Assembly: GCA_024278335.1 (NCBI GenBank)
Contig: JAJRTJ010000001.1
Location: forward strand, 94,020 to 158,019
Length of the DNA: 64,000 nucleotides
Origin: an archaeon
GTDB lineage: Archaea > Nanobdellota > Nanobdellia > Pacearchaeales > GW2011-AR1
Direction: 5' to 3'
This document shows positions 2,069 to 33,496 of the stretch, in pieces; the stretch's first letter is position 1, and every line of letters begins with the position of its first letter. Below the pieces are notes generated by a model. That model was not told the origin of the DNA. It saw only the letters and a program-made list of their open reading frames with translations, and made no database searches. Both the position numbers and the translations under genes were made by a program.

Positions 2069-2920
2069 ATGCCTAAGAAAAAGACTAGAAAAAAATCTTC
2101 AAAAAAAGAAAAGAAGATAGATGAAAAAAATATTACAACACTTCATATAAAGCATGAATCAGATATTGCTCTTGATTTTGCAACAAAAGTTTACAAGAAC
2201 TTTGACAAAATAATCAAATCAATAATTCTATTTGGTTCAATAGCAAAGCAGAATGCAGAGCCTGGCTCAGATATAGATATTATAATTGTTTTAGATGATG
2301 TTTCAGTTCACTGGGACCAAGAAATGATTGCATGGTATAGAGAAGAGCTTGACAAGATAATTGAAAAAAACCCCTATCAAAAAGAGCTTCATATTAATAC
2401 AATAAAATTAAGCACTTGGTGGGAGGATTTAATGAGAGGAGACCCGACTTTGTTGAATATCCTTCGGTATGGAGAGCCGTTAATTGATTTTGCGGGATTT
2501 TTTGTTCCACTAAAATACCTATTAATTAAAGGAAAAATAAAAGCAACTCCTGAAGCAATTTACAGCTGTTTGCAAAGAGCACCGACCCATCTTGGAAGAA
2601 GCAAAGCAGCTGAGCTTGGAGCAATAGAAGGGCTTTACTGGGCAATGGTTGATTCTGCTCATGCAGCGCTTATGACAGCAAATGTCTCTCCGCCATCTCC
2701 AGAGCATATTCCCATTGATTTAAAAGATGTTTTTGTAGCACAAGGAATGTTAAAAATAAAATATGTTGCATGGTATAGAGACCTTTTAATGCTTCATAAA
2801 AAAATAACTCATGGTTTAATAAGTGATTTAAGGGGAGTTGAATTAGACCTTTGGCAACAAAGAACAGAAGAATTTTTGCAGGTTATGACTGATTTAGTTA
2901 AAAAACAAATTGAAGAATAA
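2069..2920 (+). CDS. Nucleotidyltransferase (Pol-beta/MNT-type) domain fused to a HEPN-like helical domain
   Basis: LFGS...GSDIDIIIVLDD signature followed by a helical C-terminal domain. ATG at 2069 is preferred over the track start. Confidence 0.8.
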   Translation: MPKKKTRKKSSKKEKKIDEKNITTLHIKHESDIALDFATKVYKNFDKIIKSIILFGSIAKQNAEPGSDIDIIIVLDDVSVHWDQEMIAWYREELDKIIEKNPYQKELHINTIKLSTWWEDLMRGDPTLLNILRYGEPLIDFAGFFVPLKYLLIKGKIKATPEAIYSCLQRAPTHLGRSKAAELGAIEGLYWAMVDSAHAALMTANVSPPSPEHIPIDLKDVFVAQGMLKIKYVAWYRDLLMLHKKITHGLISDLRGVELDLWQQRTEEFLQVMTDLVKKQIEE

Positions 2921-2949
2921 GTTTTTAGAAATTAAATTTAAATAAAAAA

Positions 2950-3543
2950 TTACTCAGAGTTTTCTTTTGGTGCAAGAGCCTGTTCAAGAGATTTTCTTGA
3001 TTGGTCAGCTCCTCTTTTAATTGCTTCACCAATACCCTCGGTGGCAATTATTTGCAAGGCATTTCCAACAATTTGTTTCTTTAATTTATTGTCAAGGTCT
3101 TCAATATATTTGTCTTTAAGTTCCCTTGAAACATCTTTTCCCTTTGTTTGAGTAATATCTAAAACATCTCCAACCTTTAAAGCTAAAAAAGAAGACATAT
3201 AAACTCTCTCTGCTGTTTCAAGTAATTTATGTGCTGTAATGTTCCGAGTATGTCCATAAACATCTGCAACCTCTCCTCCCTCTTCTGCTGCCTCCTGTGC
3301 TTCCCTTGCTCCATCTAAAAATGGTTGGGCTAATATTTTAGCAGCATAAGCACTGGGATTAGTAAGAGCATCAATATATTCGTTTGTTGTTGCATAAAGT
3401 CCTGCTTTTCCATAATCTTCTGTGTTCCTTCCTCGTGATGCAATAAAAAATTTTCTTGCCGCACTATCTTCTACAAGTTCCTTATTAAACCTTCTTGCCT
3501 TTTCTCTTATTTCCTCTTCACTTGGTTGATTATTTTCTGCCAT
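2950..3543 (-). CDS. Hypothetical protein
   Basis: 197-aa ORF with normal composition and no recognised motif. Confidence 0.6.
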   Translation of the reverse strand: MAENNQPSEEEIREKARRFNKELVEDSAARKFFIASRGRNTEDYGKAGLYATTNEYIDALTNPSAYAAKILAQPFLDGAREAQEAAEEGGEVADVYGHTRNITAHKLLETAERVYMSSFLALKVGDVLDITQTKGKDVSRELKDKYIEDLDNKLKKQIVGNALQIIATEGIGEAIKRGADQSRKSLEQALAPKENSE

Positions 3544-19938: not shown

Positions 19939-21156
19939 ATGCTCTATGATTATTTTCTCTTGGCATTTAGAAATCTTAAAAAAAGAGGTTTAAGAAGTTG
20001 GTTGACTTTATTAGGAATTGTAATTGGTGTGACTGCAGTAGTTTCATTAATCTCTCTGGGAACAGGCTTGCAAATTGCAATTACTTCTCAATTTGGAATT
20101 AGCTCAACAGAAGTTATCACAGTGCAGGCAGGAGGAATAAATTTTGCAGGACCTCCTGGTTCAGCTGTTTCAAAACCCCTCACAATTGATGATGTAAAGG
20201 CAATAGAGAGACTTGGAACAGTAAAAAGAGCAATCCGCAGAAACATTCCTACTGGAAAAATAGAATTTAATAACAAAGTTATTTTTGGATTTGTTGCAAA
20301 CATTCCTCCAGGAGAAGAAGGAGAAATTGTTTATGATATTTTTCAGCTAAAAACCTTAAAAGGAAGGCTCTTGGGAGACAGAGACAAAAAAAATATCGTT
20401 GTAGGGTATAATTTTTATGCGAATAAAGTTGGCTTTGACAAAAAAGTTGAAGTAGGAGATAAAATTTTAATTCAAGATAAAAATTTCAAGGTGATTGGAA
20501 TTATGAAGAAAAAGGGAAGTTTTATTTTTGATAATATTGTTTTCATGAATTCTGAATCTCTTGAAGAATTAATGGGATATGGAGACGAAGTTGGATTAAT
20601 CGCAGTTATTGTAAAAGATAAAAGTTTGATGGAAAAAGCAAAAAAAGAAATTGAAGATTTATTGAGAAAGAGAAGAAAAGTCAAAAAAGGAGAGGAGGAT
20701 TTTGAAGTTTCAACTCCTGAAGCAGCGCTGGACACAGTTAATGACATTCTTAGAGGCGTTCAGATTTTCGTTGCAATTATTGCATTTATTTCAGTTTTTG
20801 TAGGAGCAATTGGAATCACAAACACAATGACTGCGTCAGTTTTAGAAAGAAAAAAAGAAATAGGAATTATGAAAGCAGTTGGGGCAAAAAACAGCCAAAT
20901 CTTTTCTCAATTTTTAATTGAATCTGGATTTTTAGGATTAGTCGGAGGAATTATTGGAGCAATATTTGGAACATTAATTGGAATTTTTGGAACTCATGCC
21001 ATTAATAATCTTGTAGGGGCTACAGCCAATATAGAAATCAATTTTGCTCTTATTTTTGCTGCTTTAACAGGAAGTTTTTTAATCGGAGCAGTTGCAGGAA
21101 TCATCCCTGCAATGAATGCAGCAAAACAAAATCCCGTGGAGGCATTAAGAGAATGA
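19939..21156 (+). CDS. ABC transporter permease (MacB/FtsX-type)
   Basis: RSWLTLLGIVIGV, periplasmic-type domain, ITNTMTASVLERKKEIGIMKAVGA. Confidence 0.92.
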   Translation: MLYDYFLLAFRNLKKRGLRSWLTLLGIVIGVTAVVSLISLGTGLQIAITSQFGISSTEVITVQAGGINFAGPPGSAVSKPLTIDDVKAIERLGTVKRAIRRNIPTGKIEFNNKVIFGFVANIPPGEEGEIVYDIFQLKTLKGRLLGDRDKKNIVVGYNFYANKVGFDKKVEVGDKILIQDKNFKVIGIMKKKGSFIFDNIVFMNSESLEELMGYGDEVGLIAVIVKDKSLMEKAKKEIEDLLRKRRKVKKGEEDFEVSTPEAALDTVNDILRGVQIFVAIIAFISVFVGAIGITNTMTASVLERKKEIGIMKAVGAKNSQIFSQFLIESGFLGLVGGIIGAIFGTLIGIFGTHAINNLVGATANIEINFALIFAALTGSFLIGAVAGIIPAMNAAKQNPVEALRE

Positions 21157-22358
21157 TAAGCACAGAAACACTAAAATACTCTTTGAAAAACCTTGTTCAT
21201 AGAAAAGCAAGAAGCTCTTTAACAATCTTATCTATTTTTATAGGAATTGTAACTATTTTTATTTTTGTTAGTTTTGGAATCGGGCTTTTTAATTTTGTAA
21301 ACAACTTTGCATCAGAAACTTCTGCGGATAAAATCATCATTCAAGCTAAAGGAGGAGGAATGCCTGGATTAGACGACACTTTTGCTCTGACAGAAGAAGA
21401 ATTAAAAATCATTCAAGATACTCCCGGAGTTATTGAAGCCACAGGCGTTAAATTCAAGACAGCAGAAATTAAAAAAGGCAATAAAAATTTCTTCTCCTTT
21501 GTAATCTCTTATGACCCTGAAAAACCCTTGATTTTAGAGTTATCTGATATTGATATTATAGAAGGAAGAGGATTAAGAAAAAAAGACCTTGGAAAAGTAG
21601 TTGCAGGATATAATTACATGCTTGATGATAAAATCTTTTCAAAAGCCTTGAAAGTAAATGACAAAATTGAAGTGCAGGGGCAGAAATTAAAAATAATAGG
21701 GTTTTTTGATAAAGTAGGCAATCCTCAGGATGATTCTCAGCTTTATGTAACAGAAGAGCAGTTGGACTTGCTTTACCCAGGAAATAATTCTTTTGGATGG
21801 ATAGTTGCAAGAATTGATTTAAAAAAAATAAACACTACAATTGAAAAAATAGAAGAAAATCTAAGAGAACACAGGAATTTGGAAAAAGGAAAAGAAGATT
21901 TTTTTGTCCAATCTTTTGAAGATTTAATTGCAAGTTTTAGCAGTGCTCTGAACATTGTGGTGTTTTTTGTAGTTTTAATTGCACTCATCTCTGTAATTGT
22001 TTCTGCAATTAATACTGCAAATACAATGATTACTTCTGTTTTAGAGAGATATAAAGAAATTGGGATTATGAAGGCAGTTGGCTCTTCAAACTTGGTCATT
22101 TTTAATATATTCTTGCTTGAATCTTCAATTCTTGGGTTTATTGCAGGAGTGCTTGGGGTTTTAGTTGGATGGGCGCTAAGTGCTTTTGCTGGAAATGTTT
22201 TAAACAACCTTGGATGGGGGTTTTTAAGCCCTGCTTTTCCTGCTTCTCTGTTTATCGGATGTATTTTATTTGCAACTATAACTGGAGCTGTTTCTGGAGC
22301 AATTCCTGCATGGCAGGCATCAAAAACAAATATTGTTGATGCGCTTAGATATGAATGA
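21153..22358 (+). CDS. ABC transporter permease (MacB/FtsX-type), second paralog
   Basis: RSSLTILSIFIGI, NTMITSVLERYKEIGIMKAVG, ALRYE end. Confidence 0.92.
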   Translation: MISTETLKYSLKNLVHRKARSSLTILSIFIGIVTIFIFVSFGIGLFNFVNNFASETSADKIIIQAKGGGMPGLDDTFALTEEELKIIQDTPGVIEATGVKFKTAEIKKGNKNFFSFVISYDPEKPLILELSDIDIIEGRGLRKKDLGKVVAGYNYMLDDKIFSKALKVNDKIEVQGQKLKIIGFFDKVGNPQDDSQLYVTEEQLDLLYPGNNSFGWIVARIDLKKINTTIEKIEENLREHRNLEKGKEDFFVQSFEDLIASFSSALNIVVFFVVLIALISVIVSAINTANTMITSVLERYKEIGIMKAVGSSNLVIFNIFLLESSILGFIAGVLGVLVGWALSAFAGNVLNNLGWGFLSPAFPASLFIGCILFATITGAVSGAIPAWQASKTNIVDALRYE

Positions 22359-22435
22359 TTTTAAATATTTAGCTTTTTTAATTAAAGACATACTTGTTCT
22401 TGCGTAATAAAAAATTTGAGAGAGCGAAAGCGAAC

Positions 22436-22492
22436 CTCTTAACCTTTGTTAGACGAAATTTTAATTTCGTGAGTTCTTTGGTCGGTTAAGAG
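22436..22492. repeat. Structured motif copy 1: stem-TTTGTTAG-hairpin-GAGTTCTTT-stem
   Basis: CTCTTAACC/GGTTAAGAG outer stem and ACGAAAT/ATTTCGT inner stem. Same layout as 23332-23400. Confidence 0.65.
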
Positions 22493-22946
22493 AAGTTTTT
22501 CTGCGAGGCGAAGCCGAGACTATCTGTGCGAAGCACTAAGGCGGCTCACCTTTTTTACAACAATTTCTACAATTTAGGGGCGGGTGGTCGGGGGTTTTAA
22601 AGTGTTCTCTCCCAACTTTTAACTCAACAATTTAGAGAATTTGCAATTACGCCTAACATATGCGATTAAGAGAAGTAACAATCCCTCCAAAATTTATCCT
22701 CTGGAATGAAATGACGAGCTGAGAAATTTTTGAGAGCTGGATTGACATTTGGGTTAATTTCTGGTTTTCAAAAAGAAAATTTGCAAAGCAAAAAGAAATT
22801 TTCCGCTTAATCTGCTGTTGCTTGACCTGAAGCGAAGCGAAAGGCTCGGGCTGGCACCCAAAGTGCCCCCGAGAGTTGAGATTTCGTTCTCAGCCGATTT
22901 CGTAGCGTAGTTGCTAAAAAAAATAGAAAAAGGAAGAACCGAAATA

Positions 22947-22954
22947 TTTAAATA
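22947..22954 (+). promoter_or_regulatory. Archaeal TATA box (TTTAAATA) with upstream BRE-like CGAAA
   Basis: Lies 22 nt before the ATG at 22976, consistent with a leaderless transcript. Confidence 0.55.
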
Positions 22955-22975
22955 CTACTAAGTAATGACAATAAT

Positions 22976-23302
22976 ATGATAAAAATAGATTTTGATGAAT
23001 TAGCAAAAAGATTAAGTCACGACTTAGAATTTACTTTAGATGCGAAAGGACCTATGACTAATTTAATCTTGCCCGCTGAAGAAGAAGCAAAAAGATGGCA
23101 ACAGTGGAGAGATAGAAGAATGACTGCCATCAACGAAGCAGAAGCAAGATATCAGGCAAGATTAAAAAATGCTTACAAAGCTGAGGAAATAGACGGAATG
23201 GAATTAGCAAAGCATTCAACCAGCGGAATTTTTAGTCCTTTCGAAAGAATGAGGCAAAGAACAAGACAGACTTATGCCGAAAATGCAAAATCTGTTTTTT
23301 GA
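22976..23302 (+). CDS. Orphan hypothetical protein flanked by structured repeats
   Basis: 108-aa ORF with its own TATA box. Helical and charged. Confidence 0.6.
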   Translation: MIKIDFDELAKRLSHDLEFTLDAKGPMTNLILPAEEEAKRWQQWRDRRMTAINEAEARYQARLKNAYKAEEIDGMELAKHSTSGIFSPFERMRQRTRQTYAENAKSVF

Positions 23303-23331
23303 GGTTCTTCACAAAATAATCCTTCAGCAAT

Positions 23332-23400
23332 TTCGTTAAAATTTTGTTAGGCAAAGTTGCGTAGCAATTTTGAAAGCGAGTTCTTTATGATTTTAACGAA
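23332..23400. repeat. Structured motif copy 2: stem-TTTGTTAG-hairpin-GAGTTCTTT-stem
   Basis: TTCGTTAAAAT/ATTTTAACGAA outer stem and AAAGTTGC-GTA-GCAATTTT inner hairpin. Confidence 0.65.
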
Positions 23401-23639
23401 GCAAGAAATCAAAGGGCTGAGAATTACTTGCAACCTAAAGGGCAGGGAGCGGGGACAGAAAACGCAAGGTAAGAAATTGAGGGGAAGGCAAGTAACCCGG
23501 AGGGCGAAATCTCAATTTGGGCGAAGCCAAGCAACACCTTTTAATCTCAATTTCTTTTTCATAATAATTAATTAGTAAAAATAAAACTATCGAAATATAT
23601 AATAAGAATTCTTAAAAACGATAAAAAAATTTAATTTCA

Positions 23640-23852
23640 ATGAATTTTTGCGAAAAAGCTGTTCAAAAAAGAAAAGCTTCCTTAGAGGCTCTTGCAAAAG
23701 AGTTAGCTCCTGAACAAGCGATGAGATTATATGGAGAAGCTGAAGCTTTTTATATTATAGGGAAAATGGATGGAGAAAATGGATTTTCTGAAGAAAACTG
23801 GGGAGAATATCTTGCTGAAAAACAAAGGCAGATTCAAAAAAGAATAGATTAA
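23640..23852 (+). CDS. Small hypothetical protein
   Basis: 70-aa ORF with a TATA-like AT run upstream. Confidence 0.5.
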   Translation: MNFCEKAVQKRKASLEALAKELAPEQAMRLYGEAEAFYIIGKMDGENGFSEENWGEYLAEKQRQIQKRID

Positions 23853-23855
23853 AAA

Positions 23856-24686
23856 TTATTTCTTATGTTTTCTTTTCTTTTTCCAATAAACAAGTCCAAT
23901 AATAATCAAAACCGAAAGAATCCACTTCCAAAGAGAACTGCCTTCAGAATCTTCTAATTTAAAATTATCTCTTTCAAAAGCAACAGTTGTTGAAACCTCT
24001 CTTCTTTGATTATTTATGTCTGAATAAATTAAATTTACTTTTATTTCAGAAAGTGTTGTAAACAGCTTAAAATCAGCAGAAGTGTCTTCATTTGAATCTA
24101 AATCACCGACAATATTTTTGTTTGCACCCTTTATTTCAATACCTTCTTGCTTTGGTATTTCAATTGTTAAAGCCTCTATTTCTTCTTTTCCTGTATTTAA
24201 AATATTGAATGTTATTTCCCCTGTAGAAGGATTGTAATCTTTTACAAAGATTTCAAAACTTGCCCTTACATCCTGAACTTCAATATTAAAAGATTTTGTC
24301 TGCTGGCTTGGATTAATTACTCCATAGCTATATTTAATTTCAATTGGATTTTCTCCATCTAATGCATTTTTATCCACTCTTACTTTGAATGGAGCAAGAA
24401 ATGTGCTGCTGAAATCTTTTGAAAATGTGCCAGACTTTATTTGATAAAATTTCTCAGAACCAGGGTCAAGAGTAAATGGATATTGCTCCAACAACTCCAC
24501 TTTTAAATTTGAACAGGAAGTTGATTCAATTCCTTTTATCTGAAAAACTAATTTTACTAAATCCCCCTGAACTGCAGGATAAGGCTCTTGATTTAAAAGC
24601 TCCACATCAACATCACATACTTCCTGTGCTGCAACAAAATTAATTAAAAGAACTAATGCTATTAATATTGCTAACCCCTCTTTCAT
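23856..24686 (-). CDS. COG1361-like S-layer/surface protein (signal peptide, Ig-like domains, C-terminal TM anchor)
   Basis: Signal peptide, LLNQEPYPA..G..VKL, ..IVGDLDSNED.SADF, C-terminal TM helix plus basic tail. This family is typically linked to MacB-type ABC systems. Confidence 0.75.
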   Translation of the reverse strand: MKEGLAILIALVLLINFVAAQEVCDVDVELLNQEPYPAVQGDLVKLVFQIKGIESTSCSNLKVELLEQYPFTLDPGSEKFYQIKSGTFSKDFSSTFLAPFKVRVDKNALDGENPIEIKYSYGVINPSQQTKSFNIEVQDVRASFEIFVKDYNPSTGEITFNILNTGKEEIEALTIEIPKQEGIEIKGANKNIVGDLDSNEDTSADFKLFTTLSEIKVNLIYSDINNQRREVSTTVAFERDNFKLEDSEGSSLWKWILSVLIIIGLVYWKKKRKHKK

Positions 24687-33344: not shown

Positions 33345-33496
33345 CCCTCCATAGCTCAGTGGTTTAGAGCGCCTGGCTGTAGAATAGGGCGGATATTCCA
33401 TTATGTTCATGGAAATTAAATGAAGCCTGAGAAGCCAGTCCTGTTACTGCGTATGCAGTTCCCGGGAGATCCCCAGTTCGAATCTGGGTGGAGGGA
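33345..33496 (+). tRNA. tRNA-Tyr(GTA) with a 78-nt intron at 37/38 (33383-33460)
   Basis: CCCTCCA/TGGAGGG acceptor. Anticodon stem CCTGG/CCGGG. Bulge-helix-bulge: CTGT/GCAG helix, AG|A and TT|C bulges, ATA/TAT outer helix. Confidence 0.9.

Follow-up and report, generated by a model that had tools for sequence, protein, structure and literature searches.

What are the two stem-loops that stand on either side of a small open reading frame of 108 amino acids (ORF108) in the genome of an archaeon of the order Pacearchaeales: the two ends of one mobile element, domains of an RNA, the ends of transcripts, or sites at which pieces of DNA are joined? We studied them in the window, that is, the whole stretch of 64,000 nucleotides (contig JAJRTJ010000001.1 of assembly GCA_024278335.1, positions 94,020 to 158,019 of the forward strand), in whose own numbering positions are given below. 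The genome itself (G000; 574,732 bases, 32% G+C) has contigs labelled C1 to C4; other genomes examined are designated G002, G011, etc., and loci, including metagenome contigs, L069, L089, etc. Comparative evidence from sequence led us to conclude that the two stem-loops are probably junction (recombination) sites of a satellite array, without a recombinase of its own, that belongs to a Xer-type gene-cassette system widespread in this order of DPANN archaea. Behind this conclusion stand the observed motif family, the covariation of its stems, the insertion of the DNA block that holds both copies, the co-orientation of neighbouring copies, the link to a separate clade of recombinases, and the shuffling of modules.

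Structure of the two copies

Copy 1 of the motif (a type 1 site, 22436–22495, + strand) begins with a 5' arm CTCTTAACC (22436–22444), followed by box 1, TTTGTTAG (22445–22452), an inner hairpin ACGAAAT-TTTA-ATTTCGT of 7 bp with a 4-nt loop (22453–22470), box 2, GAGTTCTTT (22471–22479), then GGTC, the whole box-2 side strand reading GAGTTCTTTGGTC, and finally a 3' arm GGTTAAGAG (22484–22492) with AAG after it. Copy 2 (a type 2 site, 23331–23401, + strand, with arms TTTCGTTAAAAT / ATTTTAACGAAG) consists of the 5' arm TTCGTTAAAAT (23332–23342), box 1 TTTGTTAG (23343–23350), an imperfect inner hairpin within 23351–23377, box 2 GAGTTCTTT (23378–23386) and ATG, together the box-2 side strand GAGTTCTTTATG, and the 3' arm ATTTTAACGAA (23390–23400) followed by G. 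The covariance model of the motif, R1, scored copy 1 at 79 bits and copy 2 at 55 bits. A sequence-only reading of this locus had described one layout at both places, and we found the same order of outer stem, TTTGTTAG, inner hairpin, GAGTTCTTT and outer stem on the + strand in each. It had also described the unpaired strings as identical and the stems as pairing despite completely different sequences. The first two statements held; the stems, however, are not wholly different, because the two have one pairing register and a TTAA core in common, and AAG comes after the stem in both copies.

The pattern TTTGTTAG-N(10-40)-GAGTTCTTT had two matches in the window against 0.00 expected by chance, as estimated from 100 shuffles. 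A shortened pattern, TTGTTAG-N(8-45)-GAGTTCTT, matched only the two window places in all 574,732 bases of the genome. Predicted folding, whether with RNA or DNA parameters and on either strand, gave this layout for both copies (z about -1.5 to -3.4).

The motif family across genomes

A BLAST search with 22360–23640 as query and 60 genomes of other genera as targets returned matches of 75–96% identity over 50–270 nt, with several matches per genome and many of them at contig ends. From BLAST hits, 14 motif copies of 12 genomes were chosen by hand to form alignment A2, in which an outer helix of 12 pairs was tested. In this helix 91% of cells pair, versus 73% in shuffles; 7 of the 12 pairs vary on both sides, and all slid registers were far worse. 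Clear compensatory arm variants were CTTTTATCC/GGATAAAAG, GTTAAAC/GTTTAAC and GTTTAT/ATAAAC. Compensatory arm changes were found as well in orthologues of copy 1, and the copy in G047 is a mosaic that joins one arm variant to the other. All but one of the 14 copies in A2 (13 of 14) have AAG after the stem. Mismatches of the G-T and A-C kinds in the outer stem of A2 favoured neither strand.

The covariance-model scan that had been proposed as a check was carried out with R1 on the own genome, 41 close relatives and 251 genomes of the host's order. The own genome holds three copies, the third at C3:41552-41614. The motif was found in 12 of the close relatives and in 76 genomes of the order; the latter span 51 of 113 genera and have 1–7 copies each. 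Adjacent copies were co-oriented in 13 of 14 pairs, and the types represented by copies 1 and 2 also occur singly or in other combinations elsewhere. The earlier proposal of a selected, recurrent structure is upheld by this recurrence in other genomes together with the compensatory stem changes.

A Xer-type recombinase gene linked to the motif

A tyrosine recombinase gene accompanies the motif in several genomes. In G011 a gene for a 281-amino-acid enzyme begins 180 nt after the motif. The own genome has two such genes, one on C1 and one at the end of C3, and the latter (C3:40619-41428, - strand; 270 amino acids) begins 124 nt past the third motif copy, at the contig end. In G002, G021 and G047 the motif copies precede a recombinase gene of the same strand by 2.7–11 kb. 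The six recombinase-linked cases among 19 sites have a chance probability of about 1e-6. As an independent test of this link we took four arrays (G226, G109, G248, G105) that had been picked solely by the clustering of R1 copies; in each of them a Xer-like gene, co-oriented with the sites, closes the array 0.2–2.5 kb past the last site. A scan of the genome collection with an alignment of the recombinases was too general, as it returned mostly bacterial XerC/D and four archaeal loci without an R1 match.

Pfam identified in the linked recombinase a Phage_integrase domain and a SAM-like N-terminal domain. In a maximum-likelihood tree, all eight site-linked recombinases fell outside the clade that holds the own C1 gene and the genes adjoining dif palindromes (split support 100/98); the classical dif-like palindrome, TTCGCTTAA-N6-TTAAGCGAA, adjoins the housekeeping-type genes in relatives. 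The recombinases of own C3, own C1 and G011 all passed the NCBIfam model of archaeal XerA (NF040815 XerA_Arch, 229–242 versus a cut-off of 220). With the integron integrase model TIGR02249 the same three scored 191–215 bits, below its cut-off of 265, and their matches came in two pieces that skip profile positions of about 194–237, the insert specific to IntI. Because the linked enzyme forms a separate clade, passes XerA_Arch and has no IntI insert, we regard it as a dedicated XerA-like paralogue; judged from these comparisons, it is not IntI, and apparently it is not the housekeeping enzyme.

Directly upstream of the site-linked genes are palindromes with 12–13-bp arms and 4–6-nt centres, preceded by AACA(T), e.g., ACGGATATTAACC-TTTTAG-AGGTTATATATCCGT and AGATTATCAATA-GTTTAT-TATTGATAATCT. 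Arms of 16 nt in the own genome and of 13 nt in G002 enclose 55–58 nt that include the promoter and start codon of the recombinase gene. The own arms (within C3:41101-41632) form a 16-nt perfect inverted repeat, TTTTAATCTCAATTTT / AAAATTGAGATTAAAA, of which TTTAATCGAACTT / AAGTTCGATTAAA is the covarying equivalent in G002. This arrangement suggests that the linked enzyme might regulate, or invert, the region from which it is itself expressed. Copy 1 in the window, read as CTCTTAACC-TTTGTTAG-(hairpin)-GAGTTCTTTGGTC-GGTTAAGAG, is a palindrome of the same kind with an expanded centre; the motif's centre measures 39–47 nt, versus the 6–8 bp centre of a Xer/dif-type site.

Regarding the contigs themselves, the last ~130 nt of C1 equal the first ~130 nt of C3, and the two probably abut. 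C1 and C2 start with long (ATT)n / (AAT)n runs.

The block as an insertion

The two copies lie between the macB2 permease gene (21153–22358, + strand; Pfam MacB_PCD and FtsX) and a gene for 276 amino acids (23856–24686, - strand), which is convergent with macB2 in about 30 metagenome loci. Homologues of the permease were taken from metagenome contigs, giving 71 macB loci. An empty site, which the sequence-only reading had suggested looking for in relatives, was found: the gap between macB2 and the convergent 276-amino-acid gene is 32–85 nt long in 10 metagenome loci and 1498 nt long here. Because relatives have these short gaps, and others have long gaps with different content, we concluded that 22359–23855 is acquired DNA at an insertion-prone spot. 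The suspicion that the motif belongs to mobile DNA was thereby substantiated, with the entire block inserted between the two genes.

R1 matched in only two of the 71 macB loci (L089 and L090), which represent one sequence seen twice, and a role of the motif as a regulatory element of the macB operon was rejected for this reason. In L089, from an unrelated lineage, the same gap holds the leader of module a (see below) and a d-like module, together with a motif copy and cargo genes that differ from those here. Within that gap, a single minus-strand gene is flanked on either side by a 75-nt repeat in direct orientation, which contains a G-rich box (GGTTG.GGGAGGACGGTGGGACGACC; L089 3700-3775 and 4505-4575). 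The closest macB relative (L069, 65% identity) has in its gap (2300-3110) two small promoter-bearing genes and no hairpin modules; one of these genes looks GIY-YIG-like, judged by its N-terminal sequence alone. The gap between macB2 and the 276-amino-acid gene is one that acquires genes by more than one route.

ORF108 and other cargo

ORF108 (22976–23302) and its promoter CGAAATATTTAAATA, with a B recognition element (BRE) and TATA box (22940–22954), occupy an insert of 412 nt (22915–23326, + strand) that is enclosed by a stem, AGTTGC at 22909–22914 and GCAATT at 23327–23332. At the equivalent point of G011, our one comparator locus here, modules c and d are followed by a small hairpin, AGTTCTC-GAA-GAGAATT, and then directly by a type 2 motif. 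The two copies had been proposed to be the ends of one element that carries ORF108. This proposal failed, since ORF108 with its promoter sits at the position of the small hairpin loop, and copy 1 belongs to a different module that is found alone elsewhere.

ORF108 itself had been called an orphan and presented as the content between the two copies. It does lie between them, but about 480 nt of conserved non-coding modules lie there too. Pfam and word-based searches for homologues gave no match for ORF108; an exhaustive HMMER search yielded six remote relatives. The best of these (52% identity) stands beside an aCPSF-like gene, without the motif and behind the same generic promoter. We had considered the promoter module before the small open reading frames as a cassette border; it is merely the generic archaeal BRE/TATA, present also before this motif-free homologue, and the idea was abandoned. 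Unrelated small open reading frames of 91, 116 and 135 amino acids occur in G017, G010 and G003, each followed by a type 2 motif, and the type 2 motif of G011 has no open reading frame before it. The motif thus recurs as the neighbour on the 3' side while the genes before it change, and the copies are not the ends of an ORF108 element.

A different unit emerged from comparison within the genome. A left end of 26 nt (96%) and a right end of 21 nt (100%) are common to positions 22653–23553 and C4:71268-70146, and their cargo differs: ORF108 in the first, a 272-amino-acid gene with a methyltransferase domain in the C4 unit, which lies about 23 kb before the window. More generally, the cargo near the sites is of an accessory or defence type, comprising DNA methylases, an Mrr nuclease, SNase, a HerA-like ATPase and orphans.

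Conserved modules of the block

In this genome of 32% G+C, the block stands out by G+C-rich patches at 22450–22600, 22800–22900 and 23400–23550. The non-coding modules around the motif are rich in C-GNA-G mini-hairpins; their order is shuffled between genera, and they are sometimes kilobases apart. GCGAAGC was counted four times in the block versus 0.05 expected.

In module a (22406–22556, + strand, delimited from alignments), a leader is followed by copy 1, by two C-GNA-G mini-hairpins and by a T-run. Cross-genus homology begins with the leader, AAAAATTTG.G.GAGCGAAAGCGAAC (22406–22435), which thus marks the left edge of the array. The tail (22496–22556) consists of a T5 run, GGC-GAA-GCC (22507–22515), GTGC-GAA-GCAC (22526–22536), GGCGGCTCACC and a T6 run; it is conserved with covarying hairpin stems in G036, G014, G002, G047, G027 and G021, the compensatory variants including GTGC/GCAC, ATCAC/GTGAT and CCC/GGG. 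Module b (22557–22676, + strand) is 82–96% identical in G036, G002, G047 and G030 and ends in the half-site TAACATATGCGATTAAGAGAAGT (22654–22676), its homology stopping directly after AAGT. Copies of it occur apart from module a, and in G002 two genes separate a and b. A box within it, GGGGCGGGTGGTCGGGGG (22577–22594), is nearly invariant across genera and has four G-tracts; it is a possible G-quadruplex or protein site. Modules c and d (22677–22914, + strand), with the complementary half-site CCGCTTAATC (22803–22812) and then TGCTGTTGC, are 81–89% identical in G011, G015, G036, G226 and G105.

To the right of copy 2, module e (23402–23532, + strand) is G+C-rich and dense in hairpins. A 23-mer at 23514–23536, made up of the last 19 bases of module e and the next 4, is 100% identical in G002, G226 and G105. 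Past its AACA(T/C), each context goes on differently, with a half-site (right-arm or left-arm) or with a full palindrome. Module e is followed in the window by a 21-mer, AACACCTTTTAATCTCAATTT (23533–23553, + strand), the lone left arm of the palindrome before the C3 recombinase gene, with exact copies at C3:41473-41493 (-), before that gene, and at C4:70146-70166 (-). The rest of the block (23554–23855, + strand, read from sequence) is an A+T-rich spacer with a BRE/TATA, CGAAATATATAATAA (23591–23605), and an open reading frame of 70 amino acids (ORF70, 23640–23852). ORF70 had no match in a Pfam search; the gap of the short-gap relatives is too small for it, and it is probably the last gene of the block.

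No Rfam family reached its threshold in 22300–23700, the best match being RAGATH-33 in module e (20.5 versus 120.4 bits), a hit at chance level and the sole one when E-value thresholds were applied as well; a search of the block for tRNA or split tRNA found none. Strings resembling RNase P in module e (ACAGAA...GCAAGGUAAG) were dropped as there was no Rfam RNase P match. Elsewhere in the window, at 33345–33496, Rfam reports a tRNA that spans 152 nt, hence with a long intron; ARAGORN does not call this tRNA. Non-coding units of ~200 nt stand as tandem duplicates just upstream of the recombinase gene in L232 10500-10950 (G248) and L231 7250-7650 (G109). Each begins with AACAT and a right-arm-like half-site and looks like a gene-less cassette.

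A possible mechanism

How might such a system work? The sites would derive from a dif-like core of the type found before the Xer-family gene, which they resemble in having arms with a TTAA/TTAACC core and a short T-rich spacer; the centre of the motif would have been expanded by the variable hairpin and the two conserved boxes. A recombinase supplied in trans from the end of C3 could then recombine the sites, possibly as folded hairpins or cruciforms, as is the case for integron attC and CTX-phage attP. Blocks of accessory genes and non-coding modules would thereby be gained, lost and reshuffled. TTTGTTAG and GAGTTCTTT would occupy the position of the spacer, where strands are exchanged, and this placement of TTTGTTAG would explain why the boxes are identical despite differing arms. 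The homology breakpoints, i.e., the 23-mer and the varied sequence past AACA(T/C), fit a reading of the motif as an expanded palindrome.

Taken as a whole, this account is one that we advance tentatively: a dedicated XerA-like paralogue may recombine dif-derived palindromes with hairpin-expanded centres, so forming a platform parallel to integrons but built of different parts, with the boxes as strand-exchange regions and the non-coding modules as cassettes. We infer the action of the recombinase on the sites, their folded state, the exchange point and the role of the boxes.

Several points weigh against junction sites and the mechanism proposed for them. No recombinase gene adjoins the window's two sites. 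The copies in A2 were selected manually, and the covariation test is thus biased towards structure; moreover, the complementarity of the arms may descend from palindromic protein-binding sites and hence is no proof of folding. The cassettes between sites are 0.9–2.6 kb long, with several genes in both orientations and promoters of their own, unlike integron cassettes. The rule for circular cassettes fails for the segment between the two copies, whose ends TTAAGAGAAG and TTTCGTTAAAAT are not complementary, and holds for 22662–23549 and the C4 unit. Lastly, much of the conserved material of the block is non-coding, and the T-runs after the module tails, like the predicted helix of module b, in which several + strand pairs are G-U, are just as compatible with a transcript.

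Alternative explanations

The main rival makes these last features its own; the sequence-only reading had likewise named an unknown non-coding RNA motif as its second option. The rival holds that the motif and the hairpin-rich modules are structured non-coding RNA genes or domains, maybe on mobile DNA, in which the loop strings are binding sites for protein or RNA. Covarying stems with conserved unpaired strings speak for such genes, as do the T-runs that close modules a and e, the + strand G-U pairs, the GNRA-like and GNA loops with compensatory stems in the module tails, and the cross-genus identity of 80–96%, which resembles that of stable RNA genes. C-GNA-G triloops, however, are hallmark ultra-stable mini-hairpins of DNA and are not favoured RNA loops. 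Furthermore, Rfam has no matching family, and the motif lacks a preceding BRE/TATA consensus, whereas one stands before both open reading frames of the block. Nor would RNA genes account for modules whose order is shuffled and which may be kilobases apart, for a block that is inserted here and missing from most relatives, or for tight linkage and co-orientation with a recombinase gene. We therefore judge RNA genes to be an unlikely explanation.

Another proposal, which we find quite improbable, gives the hairpins a passive role at 3' ends, whether as terminators, as stem-loops that stabilise mRNA or as protein-binding sites; they would have spread with mobile DNA and not be recombined. Their placement suits it, in that 9 of 12 inspected copies stand 30–80 nt past the stop codon of a co-oriented open reading frame, with T5 after type 1 copies and T5 runs before type 2 copies. 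Yet it leaves unexplained the likeness of the copies to the palindromes before recombinase genes, the end of the array at a recombinase gene every time, and the copies in G011, G014 and G002 that have no co-oriented gene upstream.

The sequence-only reading had linked the hairpins to HUH transposases: the two copies would delimit, on the left and on the right, a non-autonomous element of the IS200/IS605 or REP type. The genome does have Y1 transposase genes of the IS200/IS605 type, one intact and two degraded (C1:345-698, C2:41652-42014 and C4:1134-1286), and both hairpins are in one orientation; we nonetheless consider this scarcely credible, because the genome's own IS200-like ends bear other hairpins unrelated to the motif, Y1_Tnp occurs in 4 of the 12 genomes that bear the motif and in 8 of the 29 that lack it and so has no association with the motif, the copies occur singly and in other combinations, and ORF108 sits at a hairpin-loop place downstream of other modules instead of simply between element ends.

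An H/ACA guide RNA was also considered and dropped. Like archaeal H/ACA RNA, the motif combines a 9–10 bp lower stem and an upper stem with a two-sided internal loop, and a conserved trinucleotide follows the stem. It differs in that this trinucleotide is AAG, not ACA, and in that the 3' loop strand of the motif exceeds the usual spacing of 14–16 nt; there is no ACA box and no K-turn or K-loop, and the upper stems are plain hairpins.

Comparison with known systems

If the copies are junction sites, the integron is the nearest comparison. The attC site of integrons has R''/R' boxes RYYYAAC / GTTRRRY, an unpaired central spacer, L boxes with extrahelical bases, and a variable terminal structure (Bouvier et al. 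2009, PMC2727003), and clusters of attC without integrases have been reported in archaea (Ghaly et al. 2022, PMC9668308). Like attC sites, the copies are co-oriented imperfect palindromes between accessory genes, in which an outer stem of 9–12 bp leads through an unpaired centre to an inner stem with a variable terminal loop. The arms of copy 1 read YYYYAAC ... GTTRRRR, and TCTTAAC ... GTTAAGA match the R boxes at 6 of 7 positions each. As in integrons, arrays end at a tyrosine recombinase gene, and satellite arrays without a recombinase occur. There are differences as well. GTT/AAC polarity is reversed in copy 2; the motif has a larger unpaired centre (8 x 9-13 nt), whose sequence is conserved; and its copies showed no conserved extrahelical bases. 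The linked recombinase passes the archaeal XerA model, lacks the IntI insert, and is encoded downstream of the sites in co-orientation. Cassettes here have multiple genes in both orientations with their own promoters, and long conserved non-coding modules lie beside the sites.

The second comparison is with Xer/dif systems and the integrative mobile elements exploiting Xer (IMEX). Archaea have a XerA/dif system, and the attP of the CTX phage, an IMEX, is folded from single-stranded DNA. The arrays share with these systems a Xer-family enzyme, dif-like arms, successive insertions beside a site, and a bulged-centre hairpin as a possible substrate. They differ in that the enzyme here is a dedicated paralogue instead of the housekeeping XerA, in that no phage or plasmid backbone is present, and in that the sites recur in arrays and at a second chromosomal locus. 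With IS200/IS605 and REP/RAYT elements the motif shares sub-terminal hairpins, one orientation and small size; it differs from them in its hairpin sequences, in the missing Y1 association, and in that the copies are not left and right ends of one unit.

Among the published papers that could be searched, none described this Xer-type arrangement. If the interpretation as a Xer-type cassette system is true, it would show how an ordinary Xer/dif system can give rise to gene capture in the manner of integrons, and an enzyme would be on offer for the "integrase-less" attC-like arrays reported in Nanoarchaeota. It would also account for G+C-rich, hairpin-dense intergenic islands that otherwise resemble unknown RNA genes. 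For these very small symbiotic archaea, such a system would be a main route by which genes for defence and for the cell surface are gained and lost.

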